A DNA stretch of 64,000 bases. It comes from Gemmatimonadales bacterium. GTDB lineage: Bacteria > Gemmatimonadota > Gemmatimonadetes > Gemmatimonadales > GWC2-71-9. The DNA lies in NCBI GenBank assembly GCA_041615815.1, contig JBFJCP010000001.1, positions 96,001-160,000 on the forward strand, read 5' to 3'. The stretch's first letter is position 1. Every line of letters begins with the position of its first letter. Position numbers and translations under genes: made by a program. The notes beneath the pieces are model-generated. The model was not told where the DNA came from. It saw only the letters and a program-made list of their open reading frames with translations, and searched no databases. This document shows positions 6,289-21,866 of this stretch, in pieces.

Positions 6289-7220
6289 GGGATCGTGTGC
6301 GGCTGGGTGTCACCGCAGCCGTCCTCGTTCTCACGGGTTGTGAGGCCACACCAACTCCGCACAATCTCGCCACCCAAGACTACAGCGTTGGGACGCATGT
6401 AGTGTTGCTCGGAACGGGAACGCCAAACGCGGAACCCGATCGATCTGGGACCGCGTTGGCGGTGTTGGTGGAGGGCAAGGCGTACTTGGTCGATGCCGGC
6501 CCGGGCGTGGTCCGTCAGGCCGCGGCCGCGTTGCAGCGGGGATTGGCGCCGCTCAGAATCCCCGATCTCGACATCGTGTTTCTGACCCACCTGCACAGCG
6601 ACCATACGGTGGGCCTGCCCGACCTGATTTTCACTCCATGGGTGCTGGGCCGGGAGCAGGCTTTGCGACTCTACGGACCCCCGGGAACGGCCCGTCTCGC
6701 CCATGCGCTCGTCGACGCCTACGCCGACGACATTCGGATTCGTACCAGCGGGCTCGAGCCCGGGAACGCCACTGGGTTCCGGGTCGAGCCGGTCGAGATC
6801 GACTCCGGCATCGTGTACCGTGACCAACGGGTGACCGTCACGGCCTTCCGCGTGCGGCACGCGTCGTGGCCGCGTGCCTTGGGATATCGCTTCGCAAGCG
6901 CCACTCGGACGATCGTCATCTCCGGCGACGCCGCCCCGAGCCCATCCGTCGTCACGGCCTGCGACGGCTGTGACGTCCTCGTGCACGAGGTCTATTCCGC
7001 GACGAGCTTCGCGCGCCGGGCCCCCCAATGGCAGCGCTACCATGCCTCGGCGCATACGTCCAGTGTTGAGTTGGCGGCGCTGGCGCGAGAGGCACGCCCG
7101 CGCGTCCTCGTGCTCTATCACCAGCTTCTGTGGGGGACGAGCCCCGAGAGTCTCGTGGCCGAAGTCCAAGCCGGGTGGAGTGGAACGGTCGCGTACGGCC
7201 AGGATCTGGATGTGTTTTGA
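6285..7220 (+). CDS. MBL-fold metallo-hydrolase (RNase Z/AtsA-like), probable lipoprotein
   Basis: LLGTGTP, VDAG, THLHSDH, SGD, HE motifs; lipobox-like VLTGC. Confidence 0.85.
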   Translation: MRDRVRLGVTAAVLVLTGCEATPTPHNLATQDYSVGTHVVLLGTGTPNAEPDRSGTALAVLVEGKAYLVDAGPGVVRQAAAALQRGLAPLRIPDLDIVFLTHLHSDHTVGLPDLIFTPWVLGREQALRLYGPPGTARLAHALVDAYADDIRIRTSGLEPGNATGFRVEPVEIDSGIVYRDQRVTVTAFRVRHASWPRALGYRFASATRTIVISGDAAPSPSVVTACDGCDVLVHEVYSATSFARRAPQWQRYHASAHTSSVELAALAREARPRVLVLYHQLLWGTSPESLVAEVQAGWSGTVAYGQDLDVF

Positions 7221-7329
7221 AGTGCCGAAGGTCGGTGCGCGAAAACGCTCCGCGGCGCGAGCCGATGATTGGAAGCAAAGATGAGTGCGGCTCCACGATC
7301 AGGGGCGATTCGAATGAACCGAGGGCAAC

Positions 7330-8601
7330 GTGGATCGCCCAGTTTCGTTACATACCGCGCGCCTCATCCTTCAGCGATGGTGGGGACACGACGACTTTCA
7401 CTATCACCAGCGGCGTGCCATCCTCGCGGCGCTCCGCGGCCGGGACTGTCTGGCCGTCTTGCCCACCGGCGGCGGCAAGTCACTTTGCTATCAGATTCCA
7501 GGACTTGTGCGCCCTGGCCTCACCGTGATCGTCTCTCCCCTCGTGTCGCTGATGCAGGACCAGGTAGCGGCGCTTCGCGCGCGCCACCTCCCGGCAGCGT
7601 ACGTGGCTGGCGACCAGCCCCGGGTATCCCAGGAGGCTGTGTGGAGCGGCGTCCGAAGCGGGCGCGTGAAGCTGCTGTATGTAGCGCCCGAGCGCTTGCG
7701 TCAGACGGCCGAACGCGTGGGCCGTCGTCCGGTCGGACTCTTGGCCGTGGACGAAGCACACTGCATCTCGGAGTGGGGACACGAGTTTCGACCCACGTAT
7801 CGCGGCTTGGGCCAATACGTCCAGGTCTTGGGCACGCCACCGGTCATGGCGGTGACCGCGACGGCCACGCCGGCCACGCGATGGGAGATCGTACGCAGCC
7901 TCCGCCTCAAGCGACCGGTCATGGCGCTACGCTCGTTCGATCGGCCCAACCTGTGGTTGGGGGTGCGGTGTTTTGCCAACGCCGCGAGCAGGCTCGGAAC
8001 CACCGCGCGAATGCTACGCCGCGTGGCCGACGGAGTGGCGTTGGTGTATGCCCCTACCCGGCATCGGACGGATGATGTCGCGGCCGTGCTTCGCTGGTGG
8101 GGGATCCGAGCGTGGCCCTATCACGCCGGACTGCCCGCGCATGCCCGGCGCCGACTGCTCTACCGCTTTCGGTGCGGCGAGCTCCGGGTGGTGGTCGCCA
8201 CCAGCGCTTTCGGGATGGGGATCGACCGCCCCGACGTGCGCCTCGTGATCCATCTTGGCCTCCCGGTGCGTCCGGAGGCCTACTATCAGCAGGCCGGCCG
8301 CGCGGGCCGTGACGGTGAGCCAGCGGCATGTTGGCTATTCTGGGAAAAGGGGGACCTGCGGCTTGCGTCCCGCTTGGCTGCCCGGGGCGGCGCGGACGGA
8401 CCCGGAACCGTTGCGGCACGCGAGTCTCGCGCCCGAGCGCTCGCCACGATGGAACGGTACGTCAGGGGTCGACAATGCCGTCGACGAGCGCTCCTTGCCT
8501 ATCTCGGGGAGTCGCTCTCACGGTGTGCCGGGTGTGACCGTTGCGCCCGACGCGGGATTCGTGATCCGCTGCGGTACGGCAGTCCCACCTCGAACCGTTG
8601 A
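7330..8601 (+). CDS. recQ: RecQ-family ATP-dependent DNA helicase (short, no HRDC seen)
   Basis: PTGGGKS, VDEAHCISEWGHEFRP, TATAT, AFGMGID, QQAGRAGRDG, C-terminal Zn motif CRR..CAGCDRC. Confidence 0.9.
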   Translation: MDRPVSLHTARLILQRWWGHDDFHYHQRRAILAALRGRDCLAVLPTGGGKSLCYQIPGLVRPGLTVIVSPLVSLMQDQVAALRARHLPAAYVAGDQPRVSQEAVWSGVRSGRVKLLYVAPERLRQTAERVGRRPVGLLAVDEAHCISEWGHEFRPTYRGLGQYVQVLGTPPVMAVTATATPATRWEIVRSLRLKRPVMALRSFDRPNLWLGVRCFANAASRLGTTARMLRRVADGVALVYAPTRHRTDDVAAVLRWWGIRAWPYHAGLPAHARRRLLYRFRCGELRVVVATSAFGMGIDRPDVRLVIHLGLPVRPEAYYQQAGRAGRDGEPAACWLFWEKGDLRLASRLAARGGADGPGTVAARESRARALATMERYVRGRQCRRRALLAYLGESLSRCAGCDRCARRGIRDPLRYGSPTSNR

Positions 8602-8607
8602 CGCGAC

Positions 8608-9933
8608 ATGCTCGACCGCTTCTTCCAATTGCACGCGCATCAAACCACGGTTCGCCGCGAGATCGGCGCCGGGGCCACCACCTTCGTCACGATGTCGTAC
8701 ATCATTTTCGTGCAACCGGTGGTCCTGGGGGCCGCGGGCATGGATCCGGGCGCGGTGATGACGGCGACCTGTCTGTCCAGTGCTCTGGCCACGCTCCTGA
8801 TGGGGCTCCTCGCCAATTATCCCATTGCTCTAGCGCCAGGAATGGGGCACAACTTCTTCTTCACCTACACGGTCGTGATCCTGTTGGGATACACCTGGCA
8901 GCAAGCGCTCGGTGCCATCTTCGTTTCCGGGGTATTGTTCATCGTTCTGGCCTTCATCGGGTTTCGCGAGCGGTTATTGAATGCCGTCCCGGCGGCGTTG
9001 CGCAACGGCATTGCAGCAGGCATTGGCCTCTTGATTGCGCTGGTGGGACTCCAGTGGGGCGGTATCGTCGTCGATAGCCCCGGAACACTCGTGCAGCTGG
9101 GCTCCTTGGGGTCACTCCCGGTGTTGCTCACCGTGCTGGGACTCGCGGTTACGTCGATCCTGCTCGCCTGGCGGGTGCGGGCCGCTATTCTCCTCGGGAT
9201 CGTGACCACCCTGGTGGTCGGGCTGGCGCTGGGAGTGACGGAGTTTCACGGAGTCGTGGGACGTCCTCCAGCGCTGCGCGCCACATTCCTCCAGCTGGAC
9301 GTGCTTGGGGCGCTCCAGACCGGGATGCTCTCCGTCATCTTCGTGTTCTTCTTCCTCGATCTGTTCGACACGGTCGGGACCCTCATTGGCGTCACGCAGG
9401 AGGCGGGGTTGGTGCGGGAGGACGGCACGCTTCCTCGGGCCCGCGGCGCACTCTTGGCCGACGCCATCGGCACCGTGAGCGGAACGCTCCTGGGCACGTC
9501 GACGATCACGAGCTACGTGGAGAGTGCCGCCGGTGTGACCGCCGGAGGCCGTACCGGCCTAGCCAGCGTCGTTACGGCACTCCTCTTCGTGAGTGCGCTG
9601 TTTTGTGCACCGTTGGTGGCGATGATCGGTCGGGGCGTACCGATGGGCGAGGGGCGTGTGCTCTATCCGATGGTCGCACCGGCGTTGATCCTCGTGGGGA
9701 GCTACATGATGAAAAGCGTTGTGCGGATCGAGTGGTCGGATCCGAGCGAAGCGATCCCGGCATTCCTCACGATTCTCGTCATGCCCCTGACCTTCAGCAT
9801 TACCGAGGGCATCGCGTTCGGATTCATTGCCTATGTCGTGCTCAAAGGGGCACGTGGTCGGCTTCGTGAGGTACCCCTGCTCATACAAGTGTTCGCCGGG
9901 TTGTTCGTCCTCCGTTACCTGTTGCTCTCGTGA
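8608..9933 (+). CDS. NCS2/AzgA-family purine permease
   Basis: TTFVTMSYII, APGMG, DLFDTVGT, YVESAAG, GGRTGL, many hydrophobic helices. Confidence 0.92.
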   Translation: MLDRFFQLHAHQTTVRREIGAGATTFVTMSYIIFVQPVVLGAAGMDPGAVMTATCLSSALATLLMGLLANYPIALAPGMGHNFFFTYTVVILLGYTWQQALGAIFVSGVLFIVLAFIGFRERLLNAVPAALRNGIAAGIGLLIALVGLQWGGIVVDSPGTLVQLGSLGSLPVLLTVLGLAVTSILLAWRVRAAILLGIVTTLVVGLALGVTEFHGVVGRPPALRATFLQLDVLGALQTGMLSVIFVFFFLDLFDTVGTLIGVTQEAGLVREDGTLPRARGALLADAIGTVSGTLLGTSTITSYVESAAGVTAGGRTGLASVVTALLFVSALFCAPLVAMIGRGVPMGEGRVLYPMVAPALILVGSYMMKSVVRIEWSDPSEAIPAFLTILVMPLTFSITEGIAFGFIAYVVLKGARGRLREVPLLIQVFAGLFVLRYLLLS

Positions 9934-9991
9934 AGGTGCAGGGGGTGTCGATCGGCTTGCCAGCTTACCGCATGCCAAGCATCATTGTGGC

Positions 9992-10783
9992 GTGAGTTCC
10001 CCCGCGAAACGCGAGGTCGCGACCTCGGCTCGAAGCAGACGGAGGGGCATTACCGAGCGGCTGAGGAGACACGCACCGCCGCGCCGTGGGCCTCTCTTCC
10101 GGCTTTTTTGGCCGATCACGGCCTATCTGCTCACCAACATCACGGTCACGTTCTTCTGGGTCGTATTCCGGGTGTTCAATCGGACCGTGGTCACGGGCTT
10201 GGAACACATCGACGACGAGCCCAACACGATGTTACTGTCGAATCATCAGTCCATGATCGACAGCTTCTTGGTGGGCCTCGTCGCCTATTTCCCACGGGCC
10301 ATGTGGAAACCGCATCTCTTGCCGTGGAATCCGGCCGCCGAAGAGAATTTTTACAGGACGCCCGTGTTACGATGGTTTGCAGACAACTGGAAGTGCATTC
10401 CCATCAAGGAGGGCCGGCGAGACCTGCACGCTCTCCACCGAATGCTGCAGGTATTGCCTGCGGGGGTCATGACCCTCTTCCCCGAGGGCACACGCACGCG
10501 AGATGGCTCGGTGGGCCGCGGCCGACCGGGGGCAGGGCTCGTGATCCTCGGAAGCCGCCCCAAAGTCATTCCCGTCGCCATTGACGGGATGCAGGACGTC
10601 TTACCGATTGGGGCGGTGCTGCCCCGGTTGTTCAAACGGATCTACGTGGCGTACGGCGAGCCGCTCGATTACGCCGACCTTCTCAACAAGCCCCGCTCAC
10701 GCGAAACTGCCCAGGAGGTCGTGGACCGCGCGATGGACGCGGTTCGCCGCAAGCTCGAGGAAATCAGGCGTGATCGGCGGTAG
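9992..10783 (+). CDS. lysophospholipid acyltransferase (PlsC family)
   Basis: NHQSMID (HX4D) and FPEGTR motifs; start uncertain (GTG 9992 chosen). Confidence 0.88.
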   Translation: MSSPAKREVATSARSRRRGITERLRRHAPPRRGPLFRLFWPITAYLLTNITVTFFWVVFRVFNRTVVTGLEHIDDEPNTMLLSNHQSMIDSFLVGLVAYFPRAMWKPHLLPWNPAAEENFYRTPVLRWFADNWKCIPIKEGRRDLHALHRMLQVLPAGVMTLFPEGTRTRDGSVGRGRPGAGLVILGSRPKVIPVAIDGMQDVLPIGAVLPRLFKRIYVAYGEPLDYADLLNKPRSRETAQEVVDRAMDAVRRKLEEIRRDRR

Positions 10784-12356
10784 CTGCCGCCGCAACTTGC
10801 GTAGCCGGTTGCGGCTTGATGCCGTCTCCATTCACCTTCTTGAGATAGGCGGTCGGATCGTGCAGCAGCGATCCTTCGGGCAGGTACTCCCAGAGCGCTC
10901 CAAGGTCGCTCTTCATGCGCTCGATGTAGAATGACGGGATCTGCGTCGTCTCTCCTTCGAAAAAGCGGCGCGTCGGGCCGTCGGTTGCGAGGAGCTGTTT
11001 GATCTTCTTGTAGTACTTGATGCGTCCGAATCCCTCGGAAGACACTGCCCGAAGAAGGTTGATCCAGCGCGAAAATCCCCGCCTCGTCCCGCGCGCTCGC
11101 CGCACGATGTTCTTCCAGGAAAACGAGTATTGGGTCAGATCGATGACGTGATCGTAAAACTCCCCCCACTCGTAGTTCCTGGGCTCGACATTCATCGCCT
11201 GATTGTTGTTCAAGAAGTGGAACGGGAACGGGCGGACTCGCCCGGCGCGTTGAAACTCGAGGTTGAGGGGTGCGGCCTCTCCAAACGCGGACAAGAGTGA
11301 ATAGCCCGGGAATGCGCCGGGTGTCTTGTCGATGAATTGCTTGGTGAGCTCGAACGGCTCCGGTCCCTCATCCACGTCGAGACCCAGGACGAAATTGGTT
11401 TGGACGTAAGGGATGTATTCCAATATCATGTTTACGTGGTCGGAGACCTGTTGCACCTTCTCGAGACCACGCTTCTTTCCCGTCTTGGACTTGCCACCCA
11501 AATCGTACCATGACTCGATCCCCGGGAGCATCACCTTGAAGCCCGCGGCGCTCAGGCGCTGCAAGTTCGCTTCCTTGAGGAGGGAGAGACTGCTCTCCGC
11601 GGCGAACGTCAGCGTCCCGGGACGGATGGCATCTTCGATCGCGCTCATGTAGTCGTCGAAGCGAACGCCGAAGTTCGGATCGTGCCAGCCGATCCAGGCG
11701 TTCGGCATACGGTCGACGAGGAAACGCAGGTCCTCACGAATCTGGTCGTAGTCCAACGGCTGATAATCGACCACCGAATCGATGCAGAAGCTGCACGTGT
11801 AGGGACACCCGAGACTGCCGATCATCGGGATGCCTTTGATCGGTGTCGGTGATTTGGCGATGGTGTGTTCGATGAAGCGCCAACGCTCTCGCACACCTGG
11901 CAATGTCTGGGGTTGCCGCGGCGCACTGAGGTGCAGCCCCATGGGGCGATGGGGTGCGCAATCGCGCAAGATCTCGTCGATGATCGCCTTATCGGTGAAC
12001 CCGACGACGTAATCGAAGTACTTCCGGGCATCCTCGGGGTAGCACCGCGCGTGCGGCCCGCCGAGAACCGTGACCGCCCCCCGCTGCCGAAACAGATTGC
12101 TCAGGGCATACGACAGCTGAGCCGCCTGGCTGAAGGCGCCGATGAAGAGCAGATCCATGTCCGCGGGAAACGCTTCGAGGAGATCCTCCGACCCGGTGAA
12201 GCACTCGAAAGTGACGTGATGGCCCGCCTCCTCGCACCAGACGCCCACGGCTTGTGGCATGATGCTGGCCAAATTCGGGTGCATCAGGCGGCCGTACAGC
12301 GCTTTGGTGGGTCCCTTCGTGACGAGGTCGAGGATACCGATCCGTAGTCGTCGCAC
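10764..12356 (-). CDS. B12-binding radical SAM protein
   Basis: N-terminal cobalamin-binding-like region (VLGGPHA) and GCPYTCSFC CxxxCxxC motif; GIES, FVLGLD. Confidence 0.88.
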   Translation of the reverse strand: MRRLRIGILDLVTKGPTKALYGRLMHPNLASIMPQAVGVWCEEAGHHVTFECFTGSEDLLEAFPADMDLLFIGAFSQAAQLSYALSNLFRQRGAVTVLGGPHARCYPEDARKYFDYVVGFTDKAIIDEILRDCAPHRPMGLHLSAPRQPQTLPGVRERWRFIEHTIAKSPTPIKGIPMIGSLGCPYTCSFCIDSVVDYQPLDYDQIREDLRFLVDRMPNAWIGWHDPNFGVRFDDYMSAIEDAIRPGTLTFAAESSLSLLKEANLQRLSAAGFKVMLPGIESWYDLGGKSKTGKKRGLEKVQQVSDHVNMILEYIPYVQTNFVLGLDVDEGPEPFELTKQFIDKTPGAFPGYSLLSAFGEAAPLNLEFQRAGRVRPFPFHFLNNNQAMNVEPRNYEWGEFYDHVIDLTQYSFSWKNIVRRARGTRRGFSRWINLLRAVSSEGFGRIKYYKKIKQLLATDGPTRRFFEGETTQIPSFYIERMKSDLGALWEYLPEGSLLHDPTAYLKKVNGDGIKPQPATQVAAAATADHA

Positions 12357-12457
12357 TGAAACCCCTATGAGGTCAAAGGATGGGCGAAAGGTTCACCACC
12401 GCAGCGGCGAAAGCAACCCCGGCTTGACGATGCTCCCACGGGACCGCACGATCACGC

Positions 12458-13162
12458 ATGGCCGAGCGGCTCGTACGCTACCGATGGAACGTCGCCGTGG
12501 TCGAGGTGGCGGCACCCGGAGCACCGTTCCGTGCCCTGGAACGTATCATCCGCCAAGGCATCGGCCCGGCCACGAGCGATCCGGTCTTTCAGGAGCATGC
12601 GGTGGCTTTCGCCGTCTCGAAGACCGCCGAGCCAACGGCCGAAGACCGGGTCCGGGGCTGGGTTGATCTGACCGCTGTCGCGCCGTCCGACTCGCCGATC
12701 CGCGGGGCGGTGCAGCGCCATCTGGGCGATCTCGGCGCCATCGAGGAGCCGCCATCGGATGCTGACCCGCTCCTGCTGCCCCAGGCCGCGGAGTATCGCC
12801 GCGGCCTCACTGACATGGTGGCCATCGCCTTGGACCTGCATGGCGCGGATCCGACCACGCTGCGGGCGCATCAAGGTGAGCTGCTCCAAGTGGCGTGCAG
12901 CGCTACCGATCCCCGGTTCCAGCTCCACCCGTATCTCTCGGAGCACAGCAAGGTCTACCGTGCCCGCACTGGCGTGCCGCCGGACGGGAGTAGCTGGTCC
13001 TGGGAGCACGAGGAGTGTTGGGCCCGATTCTACACTCCCGGACCGATGGCGACGCTCGCGGCCCCCATCTACGCCCTGCTGAACGTGGTGCTCGGCATCG
13101 TCCCGCGGCGCTGGGACCGCCCGGACGCGCTGGCGGCACGCATCGATATCCCCCTGCCGTGA
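12458..13162 (+). CDS. hypothetical protein
   Basis: 234-aa ORF with protein-like composition filling the gap between two radical SAM genes; no family recognised. Confidence 0.6.
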   Translation: MAERLVRYRWNVAVVEVAAPGAPFRALERIIRQGIGPATSDPVFQEHAVAFAVSKTAEPTAEDRVRGWVDLTAVAPSDSPIRGAVQRHLGDLGAIEEPPSDADPLLLPQAAEYRRGLTDMVAIALDLHGADPTTLRAHQGELLQVACSATDPRFQLHPYLSEHSKVYRARTGVPPDGSSWSWEHEECWARFYTPGPMATLAAPIYALLNVVLGIVPRRWDRPDALAARIDIPLP

Positions 13163-13226
13163 GGCCCGAGCGCCGACCGGACGGGCCGTGGACCCCGAAG
13201 GTCAGAGGCTCAAAGGGCGAGCGCGC

Positions 13227-14702
13227 TCAGGCCACCTTGGATACGAGGCGACGTTGGTCGGACCGCCCGTTCCCACCCTCCCGCCGGGGCGCTCGCACGC
13301 GGACCGGTGGCTTGAGGTACGCCTTCGGCTGCCGCATTTCAGAGACGGCGCTGTACACCCGTCGCATACACCAGAGCTTGCCACCCACCGCCATGCGCGC
13401 GGCCTTGAAGAGCATGGGGACCGTCAGCCGCGTCGTCTTGACCGTGAGATCGTACAGCTGCGCCAAGCGCTCGTAGAACTGCTCGAGCGGCAGCCGCGTT
13501 GGCAGGACGGCATGAATCACGTCGTAGTACCCATAGTCATGCGTCGTGAGCTCGTGCTGCCGCTCCTTGTAGAGCTCGGTTCCCGGGAGCGGGGTGAGAA
13601 CGGTAAACGCGGGATTGGGCAGCTCGTAGCGTCGGATGTATTCCTCGAGCCGATCGAACCCCTGCTCGTCCCAATCCGGATCTGTGATAAACGAGGTCAG
13701 GGGCGTGATCCCAGCGTCCTTGAGGATCTGGATCGCTTCGACATTGGCGTCCGCACCACCCTTGGTCCGTTTCCGCACGGACTTGAGGCCATCGTCGTCG
13801 ATTTTCTCGACGCCGAGAAAGACCGTATGGAGCCCCGCTCGCTTCCAGAGAGGGAACAGATCACGATACTTGATGACCAGGTCGCAGCGAGTCTCACACG
13901 TGTATTTCTTCTCCATCCCCGACGCGATGATGCGCTCGGCCATCTCTTTGTAGGACTCGTAGTGCAGGAATGCGATGTCGTCGGTGAAGAACACCTCGTA
14001 TTCGTCGATGGCTTCGAGCTCGGCCACGATCGCTTCCGGTGAACGGCGGCGCGCGCGACGCTGGTAAAAGACCCAGACGCTGCAGAAGTTGCAGTCGAAC
14101 GGGCACCCCCGGGACGTTTCGACGCTGGCCGACGGTGAGGCCTGACCGTGATGGTACCACTTGCGATATTGCGCGGTCAGGGACCGATCGGGAGCGGGGA
14201 CGGTGTCGAACCCCTGCAGGGCGCTCTGATGCCGAAAGCCGTCCTCGCGGTTCTTCCAGGTCATGACACCGGGCACCGCGTCGATGGGGGTCCGATGCCG
14301 CATGGCTTCGATCAGATCGGCGGCAGGACGCTCGCCCTCCCCAATCACTACGCCATCCACGGGGGAGTTCGGGTGAAAGAAGTCGCTTGGCACCAGGGAG
14401 GCGTGGTGCCCGCCAACGATGATGGGAAGGTCGGGCCGGCGTTCCTTGACAAAATGCGCGACCTCGAGACTCGGGTAGACGTCGGTGGTGAACGAGCAGC
14501 TTATGCCCACGACGTCGGGCGGATCGTCGAGGGTGGAATCGAGATTTTCCCAAGTGTCGATACGGAGATCGATCAGTTCAGCCTCGACTCCCCGTTGCCG
14601 AACGGCCGCCCCCACACATTCCAAGCCAAGTGGCTCCACGCGGAGTATGCGGGTGAGTCCGAAGCGTGTTCCCTGGGGCGGCTGGACGAGAAGCATTTTC
14701 AT
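13227..14702 (-). CDS. B12-binding radical SAM protein, HpnR-like (lipid C-methyltransferase family)
   Basis: LRVEPLGLE, VGGHHAS, GEGE, SRGCPFDCNFC, FTDD, ETRCD, DPDWD, TPLPGT, HAVLPTRLPLEQFY resemble hopanoid C-3 methylase HpnR; ATG 14702 chosen. Confidence 0.85.
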   Translation of the reverse strand: MKMLLVQPPQGTRFGLTRILRVEPLGLECVGAAVRQRGVEAELIDLRIDTWENLDSTLDDPPDVVGISCSFTTDVYPSLEVAHFVKERRPDLPIIVGGHHASLVPSDFFHPNSPVDGVVIGEGERPAADLIEAMRHRTPIDAVPGVMTWKNREDGFRHQSALQGFDTVPAPDRSLTAQYRKWYHHGQASPSASVETSRGCPFDCNFCSVWVFYQRRARRRSPEAIVAELEAIDEYEVFFTDDIAFLHYESYKEMAERIIASGMEKKYTCETRCDLVIKYRDLFPLWKRAGLHTVFLGVEKIDDDGLKSVRKRTKGGADANVEAIQILKDAGITPLTSFITDPDWDEQGFDRLEEYIRRYELPNPAFTVLTPLPGTELYKERQHELTTHDYGYYDVIHAVLPTRLPLEQFYERLAQLYDLTVKTTRLTVPMLFKAARMAVGGKLWCMRRVYSAVSEMRQPKAYLKPPVRVRAPRREGGNGRSDQRRLVSKVA

Positions 14703-14932
14703 GGCGGGGCACTCCAGGGCAAAGAGTGTCACAGGCCGGGTGCCGGCGATGGGTCCAAAGGGGTGATGACACCATCGCCAGTCGCTCAGGCGCTGCGTCA
14801 ATGACAGAGGCCGGTCGGACGTGAGAATGTCACGCACCGACCGGCCCGGTCTCTAGGTTACGTTCTCACCGATCGAGAGAACGTAGGACTATTGCTCCAC
14901 TTCCCGAGTTCGGCGGACGGCGGCGTGCCAGC

Positions 14933-16792
14933 TCAATGACATCCACACGCGCCGTCGCCGTTGCCGGCCCCAACGCCGGCAGCCACGACTGGAAGCGACC
15001 GGCTCGTCTTGCCGGGAAGGTCCATGGGGCGGTTCCCCGCGTAGATCTTGTGTCGGCTGCGGGTCTTGAACCAGTCCTTCGTAGTGGCCACCATGTGCAT
15101 GTTCTCCACCACCTGGCGCCAGCCCACGCCAGTGTTGTAGGCGCAGAAGGAGATCTCACCCTCCTGGGTGGCGTAGGGGATCACACACATCTCGGTGCGG
15201 CGAAAATCGTACGTCCACAGATCCTGGAACCACATGCCGCCGATCCACATGAGCTTCCACTCGGGTGGCGGCGGCTTCTTCCCACCGGTAAAGGCGCCAC
15301 CCATCTTGCGATTGAAGAGTCTCGCGAACTCTTTGAGGTCGAATCCTGGAGGTGCCTTGGACTGATCGAAGTTCCGTAGTACCGCCATGCCCACCTGCGC
15401 AACCGTGAGCTTCTTGCCCCGCGCCGTATCGCAGATGACCGACACATCCTTCATGAACTGCCAGACGTTGAAGAACTGCGTGAGGGGGGCCCACTCCTTG
15501 GTCCGCTCGTTCACGGTGAGCAACACCGAAGAACCGCAGTTGGGGTGACACGAGCAATTGAGACCCCCGAAGTCGACGTCCGAGCCCCGGATGTGGTCCG
15601 CCAGTGCCGTGAAGGCACCCATGGCCCCGAGCGGATACCAGTCGCGGTACGGATCGATCTTCCCGTCGTAGTAACGGTGCAGCTCGTGCGCCAGATGCGA
15701 AATGGTGTAGCGCTGCGCGTGACGGTCTTCGTCGCTGATATCCTCGTCGCGGCCCGTGAACGACACGGGCTGGAAGGACACGCCACCCATCTTGTCCGAG
15801 TTCTCGATGACGAAATCGAGAATCGGTCCCACCTGGGTGTCGTTGATCGTATTGACGACGGTGGTGACCGGCGTGATATCGATGCCAGCGGCGGCCATGT
15901 GCTCGACGGCCATCCGCTTGGCATCGAACAGGTTCGTGATTTGCCGGTGTTGGTTGGACTCGTTGGTGACGCCATCGAACTGGAAGTACGCCATATCGAG
16001 GCCGGCTTCCTTGGCCTGGAAAGCGTATTCCGGCTCCAGCGCGAATCGCAGCCCGTTAGTGGCCGCCTGGACGGTGTAGTAACCCACTTTTTTTGCGTAG
16101 GCACAGGCTTCCAGGAAGTGCGGTGACATGGTGGGTTCGCCGCCGGAAAACTGCACGGACATCTGTCGGCGCGGCTTGAACGAAATAGACGTATCCAGGA
16201 TTTCCTTGATGTCCTCCATCGAGAGCTCGTGGACGTAGCCCACCTGATTGGCGTCCATGAAGCACGGGTTGCACATCATGTTGCATCGGTTGGTGAGGTC
16301 GATCGTGAGCACGGCACCCCGACCGTACCGAATCGATGATGTCCCGTGTCGGTGGATCAGCGCATCCTCCGCGGTCCGAAAGTCGCGGCCGGGATAGCGC
16401 TCCTCGATGAGCTCGCTGAACTTGGCGTCGATGCTGAGTACGTCGACAAACTCCCCGTGCACGGGGCAGGTCTTCCGCATCAGAATCTGACCGTCTTCCT
16501 CGACGATGGTCGCCCGGATCTCGCCCGGGTGCCCATGGACCAACTCGGCGAGATCCCGATCGCCCCTGATAATGGCTTCTCGCGTCTCCTTGACGCATCG
16601 GGGGCAGAGCGAATCGGTCTCCCGCGGCCATCCGAGCGGCGGACGGCTGCGCTCGTAACTCTTGAGCAACGGCCCGGGAGCCCACTGTGGATGGATCGAC
16701 TCGTTCTCGGGAACTCGGGTGTTGACGGACTGGAACGCCCGCCACCCGAGATCGGCTGCGTGGCGGATCGCGGCCGCCAGTACTTCGCTCAT
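14933..16792 (-). CDS. radical SAM protein homologous to tetraether lipid synthase Tes/GDGT-MAS (MJ0619 family)
   Basis: SLCPRC...KTCPVHG rubredoxin-like site, IDLTNRCNMMCNPCF, QFSGGEPT, ATNG, QFDG, FQPVSFTGR, CHPNCG, MWFQD...CVIPYAT..FCAYN; GGAGG RBS before ATG 16792. Confidence 0.88.
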   Translation of the reverse strand: MSEVLAAAIRHAADLGWRAFQSVNTRVPENESIHPQWAPGPLLKSYERSRPPLGWPRETDSLCPRCVKETREAIIRGDRDLAELVHGHPGEIRATIVEEDGQILMRKTCPVHGEFVDVLSIDAKFSELIEERYPGRDFRTAEDALIHRHGTSSIRYGRGAVLTIDLTNRCNMMCNPCFMDANQVGYVHELSMEDIKEILDTSISFKPRRQMSVQFSGGEPTMSPHFLEACAYAKKVGYYTVQAATNGLRFALEPEYAFQAKEAGLDMAYFQFDGVTNESNQHRQITNLFDAKRMAVEHMAAAGIDITPVTTVVNTINDTQVGPILDFVIENSDKMGGVSFQPVSFTGRDEDISDEDRHAQRYTISHLAHELHRYYDGKIDPYRDWYPLGAMGAFTALADHIRGSDVDFGGLNCSCHPNCGSSVLLTVNERTKEWAPLTQFFNVWQFMKDVSVICDTARGKKLTVAQVGMAVLRNFDQSKAPPGFDLKEFARLFNRKMGGAFTGGKKPPPPEWKLMWIGGMWFQDLWTYDFRRTEMCVIPYATQEGEISFCAYNTGVGWRQVVENMHMVATTKDWFKTRSRHKIYAGNRPMDLPGKTSRSLPVVAAGVGAGNGDGACGCH

Positions 16793-16989
16793 GGCACCTC
16801 CAGATGGGAGCAAAGTGTCTTACGACGCCTGACCCCACCCCTCCGGCGCTTGCTGCGGCTGTACCAGGGCGCCGACCGGAGAAAATCGGCACGCAGGGCG
16901 GGTGGTTTTCATAAGGGGCGCACGGTGAGAATGGTTCCCACGGTACGCCCTGCAAACTTGCCCGAGTATGACGCTTAGCACCCCTCGCG

Positions 16990-18060
16990 TCAAGGCCCGG
17001 GTTGGCTCTGCGGAACGGCCGCGGGAAGGGGTATTCCCGCCTCGAAAAGACGCCGTTCGACCTCGGGCGCTAACCGCGCGCTCGGCTCGACCCACCGTAG
17101 CCCTTCGCCGAGCAGCGCACGCATCCGTTGCTGTGTTGTGCGGCCCGTTACGTCGTCGAATTTCGACGCGAGCCCTTGGAGCCATGGCGCCGACGCCACG
17201 AGCTTCGTGGCGCCCACTTCCGATGGTTGGGTGTGCGGCCGGCCCGAGGGGAGCGTGAGCACGCTTTGGCCGTCGCCGACATAGGTATACCAGGCCATCC
17301 GCACCGTGGGTGTCACACCCACCGCTTCGAACAACACGACGTCCTCCGCCTGCGGAGCACACTGCAACACCCGGTCTCGAACGAAATCGATTGCGTCGCC
17401 ATGGCTGAATTCCACGCGGTCCAACGTCCCGTCCGCACGAGCGGCGTAATGGATCCCTGCCACGTCGTCGGGCTCGGCCTTCCGGGCCTCACCGCGCCAA
17501 TTCTGCGCCCGCTCCGGGGTATCGAGGACCTGCGATCGATCCCACAGAAACCCGTGGCCCACGATACCGTTGGTTCCCTCGTCGCTTCGGTCGGGTAGGA
17601 TGATGGTGTCCGGAATGCCCGCCGCCTGCCGAAGGGCGAGTAGTCGCGTCGCACTGACCGCATCGGTGGCCACGGCAACCCGGGCACCGCTGTCGCGCAC
17701 GGCCTCGCCCAACTGGTCGTCGGAGAGATCGTGCGACAGCCCCACCGGAACGCCCCGGAGTCCCTGTACGGCAAAATCGACGTAGAGCCACATCGGCCGT
17801 AACGGTCCGAATACAGCCACGCGGTCCTCCGCACCGACCTGGAGATTCCCACTGAGAAAGAGGGCAACCCGAATCACCTGGCGATCGAATCGCCAATCGG
17901 GATCGCTGACCCATTGCTCGTCCGCCCAATGCCGAACGACGGCGGGACGTGCGTGCTCGCGCATGGCGAGATAGAACAGGGCATTGACCGTTTCCGGAAT
18001 GGTGTGGAGCGGTCGAACCTCACGGTCCCGCGCCTCACCGGTCGTGATATACAGCAGCAT
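16990..18060 (-). CDS. AMP-binding (long-chain acyl-CoA ligase-like) N-terminal domain protein, degenerate and truncated
   Basis: GAEDRVAVF, DFAVQGLRGVPVGL, DSGARVAV, PDDVAGIHY...FSH resemble FadD N-terminal domain; P-loop TSGTTGxPKG replaced by AARADGTLDR; only 356 aa. Confidence 0.7.
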   Translation of the reverse strand: MLLYITTGEARDREVRPLHTIPETVNALFYLAMREHARPAVVRHWADEQWVSDPDWRFDRQVIRVALFLSGNLQVGAEDRVAVFGPLRPMWLYVDFAVQGLRGVPVGLSHDLSDDQLGEAVRDSGARVAVATDAVSATRLLALRQAAGIPDTIILPDRSDEGTNGIVGHGFLWDRSQVLDTPERAQNWRGEARKAEPDDVAGIHYAARADGTLDRVEFSHGDAIDFVRDRVLQCAPQAEDVVLFEAVGVTPTVRMAWYTYVGDGQSVLTLPSGRPHTQPSEVGATKLVASAPWLQGLASKFDDVTGRTTQQRMRALLGEGLRWVEPSARLAPEVERRLFEAGIPLPAAVPQSQPGP

Positions 18061-18066
18061 CTGGAC

Positions 18067-18603
18067 TCAACCTCTCGGAATGGAATGCGGCTTCAAGGCC
18101 TGCCACAATGATTCGATCGTCGGATCTGTGATCTGCCACCGCTCCATGGCATGAATGAGCGTCCGAACATACTCGACGCCGGTCCCCACGGTGCCGTGGG
18201 CCGCGCGGAAGGCGTCCCCCAGGGCGCCGTTCTCGACACTCCAGGGCGGAGCCGCCTGGACCGCTGGCTTCGTGACCCAGACGAGCGCCGTGGCACGAGT
18301 TCCGTCACGCAGGTCGATCCGCACCTTCTTACGCGCAAACTCTGCCTGACCTTCCCGTCGCTCGATCTTGCGCACCACGTCTTTCTCATCGCTCTTCGGG
18401 ATCTCGAACGCGACGCCCTCACACTCTCCTCCGCTCGATAACCCCAGAATGGGCGAGGGGTGGGTCGGGGTTCCCCACCGTTTCGTGGACGAGTGGTTGA
18501 ACGACCGGTGATAGCCGGTGAGGCGGGCTGGTGTCCCTCGGTAGAACCTCATGGCGTTGTCGCCCATGAGACTGCCGTAAGCGAAGATCCACGTCACGCC
18601 CAA
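18067..18603 (-). CDS. gamma-glutamylcyclotransferase, ChaC family
   Basis: WIFAYGSLM, GYHRSF, WGTPTHP..LGL, GGECEGVAF, RRE, G.GVEY. Confidence 0.85.
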   Translation of the reverse strand: MGVTWIFAYGSLMGDNAMRFYRGTPARLTGYHRSFNHSSTKRWGTPTHPSPILGLSSGGECEGVAFEIPKSDEKDVVRKIERREGQAEFARKKVRIDLRDGTRATALVWVTKPAVQAAPPWSVENGALGDAFRAAHGTVGTGVEYVRTLIHAMERWQITDPTIESLWQALKPHSIPRG

Positions 18604-19185: not shown

Positions 19186-19523
19186 GATATGAAATTAGGC
19201 CGGAGCGCCTCGCGGGCGGAACTTCTGGCACAGAATTTCCATTTAGGGGATGCAAAGAAAAACTGCGGCGTGCTGAACGTCTTGTCGCCAGGCAAGAAAT
19301 CTCGTCGGGAGGGGACGAGCGGGACCACACCAAAGCCCGGTTCAGCACGCCGCAGCGCTTTTTGTTTCGCTACGGTCTTCACAATATGTCACATGGCGCG
19401 GGGAACCGCAATCACGCCCGTACCGTCCGCAGACCCCGTATCACTCGTTGCTTCCCAGCACATAGCCTGCCCTCTAACTTTCACAAGACACCGCACGAAG
19501 CACGCTTTCTAGGAGGGGACGTA

Positions 19524-20858
19524 GTGAGTCACTCCAGGCTCGTTTTGCTCGCTTCTTTACTGGTCGCCGCCACCGGGACGCTTCCAGCACAGGACGCACC
19601 AGTGCGTCGAATCCCGGTTACGGGCACCATCGAATTGGGGATCGCGCCGTTCGTTGCCCGCGGGCTGTCGGAAGCACAGAAAGAGGGTGCCCGCGCCGTG
19701 GTGCTCGAGATCGAGACCCCGGGCGGTCGTGTGGATGCGGCACAGCACATCGTCAAAGCGATCATCCAGACCGAGATTCCGGTCTATGCCTTCGTGAACG
19801 CCCACGCCTGGAGTGCTGGGGCACTCATCGCGCTCGCCGCGGACTCCATCTACATGGGTCCCGGGTCATCTATCGGGGCGGCAACACCCGTGGGGGGAAC
19901 CGGAGAGAAGCTCTCCGAGAAGATCGTCAGCGCCATGCGCGGGGAGTTCCGCTCGCTCGCCGAGCGTCGGGGGCTGGACCCGCGGATCGCCGAGGCCATG
20001 GTCGATGAGGAGATTGCCGTCGAGGGCGTGGTGGAGGCGGGGAAACTGCTCACGCTCACTGCGGCGGAAGCAGTGGAAACCGGAGTGGCCGCAGCCGAAG
20101 TGGAGAATCTGGACGATCTGCTCCGGCAGGTGGGGCTGGGCGAGGTCGGCGTGGCCACGGTGAGCATCAACTGGGCGGAACAGCTCGTCCGGTTCCTGTC
20201 ACACCCGCTGGTGGCGCCCCTGCTCCTGTCCATTGGCACGCTGGGGCTCATCATCGAGATCAAGACGCCTTCCTTTGGGCTGGCGGGGCTCACCGGCATC
20301 GTGGCCTTGGGTGCCTTTTTCGGAAGCCATTTGATCGTCGGGCTTGCCGGCTGGGAAGAGGTCATATTGCTGGTCGCCGGCTTGATCGCCCTGGCGATCG
20401 AAGTGTTCGTGGTGCCGGGCTTCGGGATCGCGGGGATGATTGCCATCCTCTGCATCGGGTCGGCTACGTTCTTGGCGTTGATCGGCGCACTGCCTACCTG
20501 GGGCGATATCGCGAGAGCGAGTGGCATTCTCGTGACGTCGTTCATGATCGTGGCGGCCGCGGTGTATGCCATCGTGCGCCATTTGCCGACGAGCGAGCGG
20601 TGGAGGGGTATCTTCTTGCGGGCGGCGACCACGAAAGAAACCGGGTACCTCTCCGCGCCGGCTCGTGCCGAGTTGGTGGGCCTGGAGGGATTGGCGGTCA
20701 CGGACCTCCGCCCGTCCGGCACCATGCGGATTGGCAACGAGCGGCACGACGTCGTCTCCGATACGGGGTTCATCCCCAAAGGCGCGCGGGTACGGATCAT
20801 CCGCTCGGAAACCTACCGGCTGGTCGTCGAGGAAGTGGCCGACACCGCCAGCGTTTAA
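19524..20858 (+). CDS. nfeD: NfeD family membrane protein (ClpP-class protease domain, TM region, OB-fold)
   Basis: IETPGGRV, AWSAGALIAL, SSIGAA, TDLRPSG; AGGAGG RBS before GTG 19524. Confidence 0.9.
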   Translation: MSHSRLVLLASLLVAATGTLPAQDAPVRRIPVTGTIELGIAPFVARGLSEAQKEGARAVVLEIETPGGRVDAAQHIVKAIIQTEIPVYAFVNAHAWSAGALIALAADSIYMGPGSSIGAATPVGGTGEKLSEKIVSAMRGEFRSLAERRGLDPRIAEAMVDEEIAVEGVVEAGKLLTLTAAEAVETGVAAAEVENLDDLLRQVGLGEVGVATVSINWAEQLVRFLSHPLVAPLLLSIGTLGLIIEIKTPSFGLAGLTGIVALGAFFGSHLIVGLAGWEEVILLVAGLIALAIEVFVVPGFGIAGMIAILCIGSATFLALIGALPTWGDIARASGILVTSFMIVAAAVYAIVRHLPTSERWRGIFLRAATTKETGYLSAPARAELVGLEGLAVTDLRPSGTMRIGNERHDVVSDTGFIPKGARVRIIRSETYRLVVEEVADTASV

Positions 20859-20873
20859 TGGACGAGGACGACT

Positions 20874-21866
20874 ATGAGTGAACTGTTTGCGATAGCACCG
20901 TGGCTGCTACCGGTGGCGCTGGTGGTCATCGTGCTGTTCTTGGGGTGGTTCATCAGCTTCATCCCGATCCGGTTGTGGATCGAGGCACTGGCCGCCGGCG
21001 TCCGCGTCACCTTCCGAACGTTGGTCGGCATGCGGCTGAGAAAGGTCAATCCGGCCGCCGTCGTGCGCCCCATGATCAACGCGACCAAAGCAGGGCTCTC
21101 TCTCGGCATCGACATGCTGGAAGCGCACTACTTGGCTGGGGGAAACGTGGATCGCGTCGTGAAAGCGCTGATCTCTGCGGATAAAGCGGGGATCGATCTC
21201 CCCTTCAAGCAGGCGACGGCCATTGACCTGGCGGGACGGGACGTCCTCGAGGCCGTACAGGTCTCGGTCAATCCGAAGGTGATCCAAACGCCCAAAGTGG
21301 CCGCGATGGCGAAGGACGGCATCCAGCTCATCGCGCTGGCCCGCGTCACCGTCCGGGCGAACATCAACCGCCTGGTCGGTGGGGCGGGGGAAGAGACCAT
21401 TCTCGCGCGGGTCGGCGAAGGCATCGTGTCGACGATTGGATCGTCGGCCTCGCACAAAGCGGTGCTCGAAAACCCGGACAACATCTCCAAAACCGTCCTC
21501 GCCAAGGGACTCGACAGCGGGACGGCCTTCGAGATCCTCTCTATCGATATCGCCGATGTCGACGTGGGCAAGAACATTGGGGCCGAGCTGCAGACCGACC
21601 AGGCCGAAGCCGACAAGCGGATCGCGCAGGCGAAGGCGGAGGAACGGCGGGCTATGGCCGTGGCGTCAGAGCAGGAGATGAAGGCCAAGACCCAGGAGAT
21701 GCGGGCCAAGTTGGTGGAGTCCGAAGCCCAGGTCCCGCTGGCGATCGCTGACGCGTTCAAGGGCGGCCAGCTCGGCATCATGGATTACGCACGGTGGCGG
21801 AACATCGAGGGAGATACGGCCATGCGGCGCAGCATCGCCGGTGAGAAGGGCGAGGAAAACAGCTAA
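20874..21866 (+). CDS. floA: flotillin-like protein FloA (YqfA, UPF0365)
   Basis: [56 protein letters not shown]. Confidence 0.95.

Follow-up and report, generated by a model that had tools for sequence, protein, structure and literature searches.

Genes at the locus

The window, meaning here the whole 64,000-nucleotide stretch of the Gemmatimonadales bacterium, carries seven genes around a radical S-adenosylmethionine (radical SAM) enzyme that resembles archaeal Tes, also called GDGT-MAS. On the minus strand, the order of transcription is a ChaC-like gene, a ligase-like gene (pseudo-ligase below), the Tes-like gene, an HpnR-like B12-binding radical SAM gene and, after a gap, a second radical SAM gene (Table 1). 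The first four of these are the subject of this work and are called the module. An earlier note on this DNA, which covered 9992-18060, placed five genes correctly (the PlsC acyltransferase, the two radical SAM enzymes beside the Tes-like one, the Tes-like gene and the ligase-like gene). It missed an open reading frame (ORF) of 234 amino acids (aa) and the ChaC-like gene. The latter lies outside that span and is the first gene of the conserved operon, with 6 bp between it and the downstream pseudo-ligase gene.

The likely start of the Tes-like gene is M8 at 16792, and its closest relative is called as a protein of 619 aa. The likely start of the HpnR-like gene is M46 at 14702, with relatives called as 491 aa; from this start, the gap to the Tes-like gene is about 230 bp. 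Y9, L12 and M13 do not vary among 27 aligned sequences of the ChaC-like family, and R83 and E84 hardly do.

Table 1. Features of the region, with their positions in the window, strand and main matches or properties
Feature	Position	Strand	Match or property
ChaC-like / gamma-glutamylcyclotransferase-fold gene	18067-18603	-	PF04752 77.9 bits (cut-off 21)
Pseudo-ligase, AMP-binding-like, 356 aa	16990-18060	-	PF00501 58.2 bits, only Pfam positions 27-270 of 384
Tes/GDGT-MAS-like radical SAM, 626 aa	14933-16813	-	PF23545 zinc ribbon and PF04055; PDB 7TOL, E 4.9e-64
HpnR-like B12-binding radical SAM	13227-14837	-	B12-binding PF02310 70.5 bits; Radical_SAM PF04055 67.8 bits
234-aa ORF, no family	12458-13162	+	Codon GC 0.74/0.52/0.81, gene-like
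Second radical SAM (weak B12-domain match)	10764-12356	-	Radical_SAM 33.9 bits, CX3CX2C present
PlsC/LPLAT-family acyltransferase	about 9992-10783	+	PF01553 62.4 bits (cut-off 23)
NfeD-FloA (flotillin) pair	19362-21866	+

The Tes-like radical SAM enzyme

When the PDB was searched with the Tes-like protein, GDGT-MAS was the only strong match, and residues 99-581 of the query were aligned with residues 36-511 of the chain. The homology to archaeal Tes/GDGT-MAS (MJ0619; 7TOL/7TOM; NF045702) is full-length and includes the rubredoxin-type zinc ribbon, the radical SAM core and the C-terminal cluster columns. With the motif definitions given by Lloyd 2022 (PMC9433317), the radical SAM motif CX3CX2C was found as CNMMCNPC at residue 177, and the rubredoxin-type CX2C...CX2H as CPRC at 70 and CPVH at 116. 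The C-terminal cluster columns CHPNCG, GGMWFQD, EMCVIPY and SFCAYNTG are shared with the canonical rows, including the Met439 position. All these columns are kept in 22 of 22 rows of the window clade and f9, one of which (L103) comes from a genome flagged unpublished. Which of the cysteines would ligate the C-terminal cluster is judged from their conservation; Met439 is named in PMC9433317. The same study placed the catalysis of GDGT-MAS at this cluster, beside two lipid pockets, and described E. coli phospholipids bound in the enzyme.

The window protein also differs from archaeal Tes. It is about 100 residues longer and scores 311.3 bits on the NCBIfam Tes model NF045702, below the equivalog cut-off of 450. 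Relatives of the same branch score 313-326 bits on this model, and proteins of other Gemmatimonadota families 581-596 bits; on the TrsS family, the window protein scores 209 bits. The canonical Gemmatimonadota Tes copies are 34-38% identical to the window protein, and the partners of the window's Tes-like gene were found in 0 of their 9 loci. A search of 1.84 billion representatives was made, and 31 full-length matches were scored with NCBIfam, of which 17 were above the NF045702 cut-off and 14 below. More than 120 clusters are at least 68% identical to the Tes-like protein. A Tes homologue is indeed present in a Gemmatimonadota member as first proposed, and close relatives bear the name of that phylum.

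The ligands of the N-terminal auxiliary [4Fe-4S] cluster (C73, C77 and C80 of GDGT-MAS) are replaced by HRHG-TSSIRYGRG in the window protein. This cysteine triad was found in 0 of 29 long-branch rows, versus 22 of 24 canonical rows. A quick maximum-likelihood tree of 51 rows, from which the fragmentary P0122 and P0130 had been dropped, split the canonical rows from the long branch with a support of 100/100 in the Shimodaira-Hasegawa-like approximate likelihood ratio test (SH-aLRT). Inside the window's clade the phyla are interleaved, which points to horizontal spread, and the mean column identity is 71% across 33 branch rows from at least 8 phyla. By these comparisons the Tes-like protein belongs to a large bacterial sister branch of canonical Tes, predicted to lack one Fe-S cluster, and is not the canonical enzyme.

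A further relative, the 669-aa metagenomic protein P0125, consists of an AMP-binding-like N-terminus and a Tes-like core without the zinc ribbon. It was not used as fusion evidence, since a single metagenomic ORF may be either a natural fusion or an assembly artefact.

The pseudo-ligase and the predicted complex

The A3 P-loop is a consensus motif of ANL enzymes. Even a loose pattern of it was found in 0 of 24 members of the pseudo-ligase family, which agrees with the first description of this protein as a pseudo-enzyme. In addition, the protein stops before the ANL C-terminal domain, at position 270 of the 384 positions of the Pfam model. Its structural model (predicted local distance difference test (pLDDT) 88.9, predicted template modelling score (pTM) 0.89) was matched by Foldseek to ANL N-domains, with TMq 0.62-0.69, E about 1e-16 and identity of 13-19%. 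The likeness to the ANL enzymes (acyl-CoA synthetases, FadD, aryl-acid adenylases; PF00501) concerns the fold of the large N-domain, including those of FadD5 and FACL13, whereas the P-loop and the C-terminal domain are missing. Judged from its sequence, the pseudo-ligase is an ANL-fold N-terminal domain only and is predicted to be catalytically dead.

Ten residues are invariant in the pseudo-ligase family: R38, W56, R60, D180, T181, E183, R184, A185, D263 and G264. When the pseudo-ligase and the Tes-like protein were predicted as a complex, with an alignment for each, the scores were 0.80, 0.78 and 0.87 (median 0.80), and three controls gave 0.00, 0.00 and 0.01. Of 157 solved complexes, 116 attained that mark, as did 2 of 215 mismatched pairs; this calibration is rough, because the alignments were custom-made. 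Between runs, at least 53% of the contacts agree, and the pLDDT of the partner is at least 84. Its confident interface comprises residues 4-13, 33-34, 54-60 and 177-189, which include most of the invariant residues (W56, R60 and D180-A185). Unlike in the ANL enzymes, the invariant residues thus lie at the predicted interface with Tes and not in an active site. To our knowledge there is no solved complex of Tes with an ANL protein, so the high score is unlikely to reflect a structure already known to the predictor. These predictions indicate that the pseudo-ligase is probably a partner subunit of the Tes-like enzyme. This dedicated partner, which also sets the window branch apart from archaeal Tes, appears from the homology searches to be confined to one sub-branch.

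The pseudo-ligase gene of one Acidobacteriota genome appears as two ORFs (L076 7859-8906, or G301:C1:3001479-3002484), owing to a frameshift or a sequencing error. In Pyrinomonadaceae-type and related acidobacterial carriers (G309-G313), matches of 83-100 bits to the pseudo-ligase profile were found in ORFs of 347-898 aa on other contigs. Either remote homologues of the partner or ordinary members of the ANL family could account for them.

Linkage and co-occurrence of the module genes

Two samples were used. The phylum sample consists of 301 Gemmatimonadota genomes queried with the Tes-like protein; the locus sample comprises 80 loci, taken across many phyla from genomes that represent their species, and several of these genomes are also in the first set. 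The window proteins were compared with these loci, and because many of the contigs are short, all linkage counts are lower bounds. Counts are also given for 8 Gemmatimonadota loci from the phylum sample, with Tes identity of 71-81%.

The pseudo-ligase gene lies directly upstream of the Tes-like gene in 37 of the 80 loci and in all 8 Gemmatimonadota loci, and a ChaC-like neighbour stands directly upstream of the pseudo-ligase gene in 27 of the 80 (and in 5 of the 8). A B12 radical SAM gene is found beside the Tes-like gene in 27 of the 80 loci as well (and in 7 of the 8). Fifteen of these 27 neighbours are orthologues of the HpnR-like gene (53-84% identity), and the other 12 belong to a different, BchE/HpnJ-like B12 radical SAM family (about 30% identity) that occupies the same place beside the Tes-like gene in other phyla. 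The eighth Gemmatimonadota contig is only 6.9 kb long, and the HpnR-like gene of that genome is on another contig. The orientation of the HpnR-like gene relative to the Tes-like gene differs among the loci, and the adjacency survives rearrangements. PlsC and the 234-aa ORF each lie beside the Tes-like gene in 2 of 80 loci (1 of 8), and the second radical SAM gene in 2 of 80 (0 of 8). An unbiased clustering of the neighbouring ORFs of the 80 loci returned the same partners and nothing else recurring across phyla; genes for peptide precursors, glycosyltransferases or transporters are not among the recurring neighbours of the Tes-like gene in these loci.

In the phylum sample, orthologues of the HpnR-like gene (at least 53% identity) are present in all 9 genomes with the 71-100% Tes type (G000 included) and in 0 of the 292 others, five of which gave only 31-38% matches. 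These results indicate that the conserved unit is ChaC-like / pseudo-ligase / Tes-like / HpnR-like, and that only these four genes are grouped beyond chance. The earlier note had linked the Tes-like gene with a methylase-type B12 radical SAM enzyme, and the 9/9 versus 0/292 distribution bears this out. It had also taken five genes within 8 kb as one cluster. A conserved grouping was confirmed for the four-gene core, which includes the ChaC-like gene, and not for PlsC and the second B12 enzyme. From the 9 carriers among 301 genomes and the gene tree mixing phyla, Gemmatimonadota appear to have received the module sporadically.

In Latescibacterota loci, the Tes-like gene lies beside tig, clpP and clpX. 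In three Gemmatimonadota loci, L037, L038 (10856-11965) and L040, a flippase-like membrane protein (LPG_synthase_TM / TIGR00374) is encoded directly downstream of the Tes-like gene.

The HpnR-like B12 radical SAM enzyme

The HpnR-like gene falls within the class B cobalamin-dependent radical SAM enzymes, and CPFDCNFC is readable in its translation. Its best named family is the hopanoid C-3 methylase HpnR (TIGR04367), with 355.1 bits against a cut-off of 650; the next best is BchE with 158 bits. Both the window protein and HpnR carry a B12-binding domain and a radical SAM core, and some pipelines name its relatives HpnR. In the 95.7% complete genome, no match was found to the squalene-hopene cyclase model TIGR01507. 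Because of this absence, and with the score below the cut-off, identity as a hopanoid methylase was rejected. The window gene tracks the Tes-like gene and not hopanoid genes, and is a putative lipid C-methylase.

In its logic, the pairing is comparable to the archaeal GrsA/B and Gmm enzymes as described in PMC11214058, where a B12 radical SAM is clustered with a tail-coupling or bridging radical SAM and acts on membrane-spanning lipids. The likeness is one of description, and nothing at the window locus indicates ring formation; the cyclisation proposed at first is not supported.

Lipid and ether genes in the genome

The genome is 95.7% complete, so the absence of a gene from the searches below is not proof that it is lacking. 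No PcrB/GGGPS was found, which leaves no archaeal-type isoprenoid lipid substrate apparent in this host, again unlike archaeal Tes, and such a substrate was rejected. The only PF06050 matches, tried as candidates for the ether reductase PlsA/Ger, are two separate HGD-D subunits in a benzoyl-CoA-reductase-like operon and not a fused PlsA. An ElbD-like reductase was rejected too, since PF07993 matched only ORFs of 330-444 aa and no large one. The genome searches thus agree with the first statement that no ether-forming gene is visible in the window. The substrate is likely an ordinary fatty-acyl glycerolipid, and the product ester-bound rather than a tetraether: with no ether gene found, a branched glycerol dialkyl glycerol tetraether (brGDGT), the product first proposed, is less likely than an ester-bound membrane-spanning diacid.

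The operon with the HGD-D subunits (L109, G000:C2:82000-100000, about 6950-13625) encodes a TetR regulator, two enoyl-CoA hydratases, a short-chain dehydrogenase/reductase (SDR) and two each of HGD-D subunits and BcrAD-type ATPases; a hemerythrin gene lies close by. To judge from this gene content, the Gemmatimonadota organism may degrade aromatic compounds under anaerobic or micro-oxic conditions.

Proposed function and alternatives

The four-gene module is proposed to couple fatty-acyl tails into a membrane-spanning lipid and then to methylate it, with the pseudo-ligase as partner; a rough probability of 0.5 is given to this reading. The Tes-like enzyme and the pseudo-ligase, a catalytically dead protein of ANL fold, would probably form a heterodimer in which the latter may present or hold an acyl chain. 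With a 5'-deoxyadenosyl radical and the C-terminal auxiliary Fe-S cluster, the Tes-like enzyme would join the ends of two fatty-acyl tails of ordinary bacterial glycerolipids. The product would be a membrane-spanning lipid of the diabolic-acid type and ester type, and the HpnR-like enzyme would then methylate unactivated chain carbons. The analysis shows homology, kept and lost motifs, linkage, co-occurrence and a predicted complex; the substrate, the product, the methylation step and the roles of the pseudo-ligase and the ChaC-like protein are inferred. The same outcome, a radical SAM tail-to-tail coupling of fatty-acyl chains, is proposed for Mss of Thermotoga/Thermoanaerobacter in PMC13159169, where Mss is only remotely related to Tes and is reported from anaerobes alone; it is likened here by description.

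Several observations weigh against this proposal. It is not obvious what a ChaC-type enzyme would do in the chemistry of lipid tails, and the partners are not universal among carriers of the Tes type. The pseudo-ligase family was not found in four chromosome-level Latescibacterota carriers (27-30 bits, versus 234-242 bits for the positive control). An HpnR-like orthologue is absent from 5 of 5 carriers examined outside Gemmatimonadota and, at 50% identity or more, from all 81 genomes of a Pyrinomonadaceae-MAG (metagenome-assembled genome) family, three of which are flagged unpublished; the HpnR-like enzyme would therefore be a lineage-restricted tailoring partner and not a core component. The Tes score below the cut-off, the lost N-terminal cluster and the lack of an ether-forming gene in the window and genome searches count on the same side. 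The related loci, all 80 of them, are known from MAGs alone. A 2025 paper (PMC11868695) describes the activity of bacterial Tes homologues as unconfirmed, and a 2026 review (PMC13459092) holds nothing newer on it.

A cultured relative also speaks against the proposal. P0129 of Terriglobus roseus DSM 18391 (WP_014786616.1, 42% identity) has lost the C-terminal cluster cysteines, yet Table S21 of PMC13159169 counts T. roseus among the producers of iso-diabolic acid, so the long branch cannot explain all producers. P0129 may be either a degenerate paralogue or an enzyme with a different mechanism, and it was rejected as a cultured anchor because of the missing cysteines. The cysteines of the C-terminal auxiliary cluster are also absent from P0136 and P0159.

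The first alternative, unlikely but to be taken seriously, is that the module acts on something other than bulk glycerolipids, such as a lipid-linked glycan or polyprenol carrier, a secondary metabolite, or a peptide or gamma-glutamyl conjugate, and that the Tes-like enzyme then forms another C-C or C-S bond. It would give a place to the ChaC/GGCT-fold protein as a conserved first gene in 27 of 80 loci, in which the YGSL-type and RE positions are kept. It would also suit a Tes-like protein that stays below the Tes equivalog cut-off, scores 209 bits on TrsS and belongs to a branch that has lost one cluster, and Lloyd 2022 (PMC9433317) describes bacterial homologues in organisms not known for biphytanyl chains. 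Against it, the GDGT-MAS alignment covers the C-terminal region with the cluster that is reported to lie beside the lipid pockets, and the B12 enzyme that co-occurs with the Tes-like one has a lipid methylase as its best named family. The recurring partners that a peptide, glycan or exported product would suggest were not seen in the 80 loci, and the only other recurring neighbours are lipid-related, LPG_synthase_TM in 3 loci and PlsC in 2.

The second alternative is the full reading of the earlier note, in which PlsC, both B12 radical SAM enzymes, the Tes-like enzyme and the pseudo-ligase, together with an unrecognised ether enzyme, make methylated and/or cyclised brGDGTs. The second B12 enzyme adjoins the Tes type in two different arrangements (window and L027; L028) and is present in 9 of 9 genomes with the Tes type versus 77 of 292 others, and PlsC and the 234-aa ORF recur together in L027 and L030. 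Halamka 2022 (PMC10087280) proposed Tes homologues for brGDGT synthesis, and the C5/C6 methylation step stands without an enzyme in its pathway figure. However, 86 of the 301 genomes carry the second B12 enzyme although most of these lack Tes, and none of its neighbours is conserved across 20 loci; PlsC adjoins the Tes-like gene in just 2 of 80. The genome has neither a fused PlsA/Ger nor a large ElbD-like reductase, its HGD-D genes belong to a benzoyl-CoA-reductase-like operon, and no match points to ring formation. This reading is considered rather improbable.

A mere co-transfer of the Tes-like and HpnR-like genes, with the B12 enzyme methylating a carotenoid, quinone or other isoprenoid, is highly doubtful: the orthologue is missing from most Tes-type carriers outside Gemmatimonadota, the gap to the Tes-like gene is about 230 bp if M46 is the start, and the orientation varies, but the co-occurrence within the phylum is perfect, the adjacency survives rearrangements, and the BchE/HpnJ-like family found in the same place in 12 loci of other phyla points to a recurring functional pairing.

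Distribution in Acidobacteriota and relation to known lipid producers

All 81 sampled genomes of the Pyrinomonadaceae-MAG family carry the long Tes branch, most of them in two copies with 52-59% identity; among 101 genomes of a Vicinamibacteria class, 50 carry it. These counts refer to the sampled genomes and not to the cultured strains themselves. Table S21 of PMC13159169 (Sahonero-Canavesi 2022) includes cultured representatives of these groups among the producers of membrane-spanning lipids without Mss. In the same table, Luteitalea pratensis has one Tes homologue, and none is entered for Pyrinomonas methylaliphatogenes and Terriglobus roseus. According to that study, Mss and Ger are found in anaerobes, and with stringent criteria Tes homologues were found in 3 of 14 acidobacteria that produce iso-diabolic acid.

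Branched tetraethers and iso-diabolic acid lipids underpin temperature and pH proxies, and the locus offers a short list of candidate genes: the Tes-like gene, the predicted dead-ligase partner, the ChaC-like gene and one B12 methylase-like gene. Zeng 2022 (PMC8941075) proposed bacterial Tes homologues as brGDGT enzymes. In the literature search, for which bioRxiv supplements were outside the scope, no published brGDGT methylase and no tested bacterial Tes was found. As a speculative and on balance unlikely extension, the heterodimer of pseudo-ligase and Tes-like enzyme could be the so far missing enzyme with which aerobic soil bacteria (Acidobacteriota SD4/SD6, Gemmatimonadota and Myxococcota) make membrane-spanning lipids, one that published stringent screens would have overlooked, and the HpnR-like enzyme could be the chain C-methylase for brGDGT-type methyls. 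If so, the methylation signal of palaeothermometry would gain its first candidate gene.

Neighbouring genes outside the module

The second radical SAM protein gives only 20.3 bits on the B12-binding domain PF02310, below the Pfam cut-off of 32.1, so its B12 binding is tentative. It has no PDB relative at E<=1 and no NCBIfam equivalog. Its copies in the 86 Gemmatimonadota genomes, one of which (G057) is flagged unpublished, are 59-72% identical to it, and from this conservation it appears to be a strongly conserved orphan family. In the 20 loci examined around it (L116-L135), 0 of 20 share a neighbour with the window, and a separate module of PlsC and the second radical SAM was rejected on the same count. 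Membership of the gene in the Tes-like module was largely rejected, since it is a widespread stand-alone gene; its two independent adjacencies to the Tes-like gene leave a small doubt. It is most likely an unrelated neighbour of the module. In L028, from another Gemmatimonadales MAG, a 475-aa ORF without a Pfam match (11024-12451, +) lies between the Tes-like gene and the second radical SAM gene on the same strand.

In the translation of the PlsC gene, NHQSMID and FPEGTR are readable, the former fitting HX4D, the catalytic motif of LPLAT enzymes. The protein scores 34.2 bits on the AGPAT model TIGR00530, below the cut-off of 102.95, and is one of three PF01553 genes in the genome. For the 234-aa ORF, no Pfam or NCBIfam match and no Atlas hit was found; its homologues in L027 and L030 are 39-45% identical. 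PlsC and the 234-aa ORF are add-ons of one sub-lineage, linked to the module only in the closest relatives.

As to expression data, no RNA run with the sequence was listed, and the DNA runs number 9, from 4 studies. The NfeD-FloA pair adjoins the module, an arrangement seen again in 1 of the 80 loci, that of the closest relative, L027.

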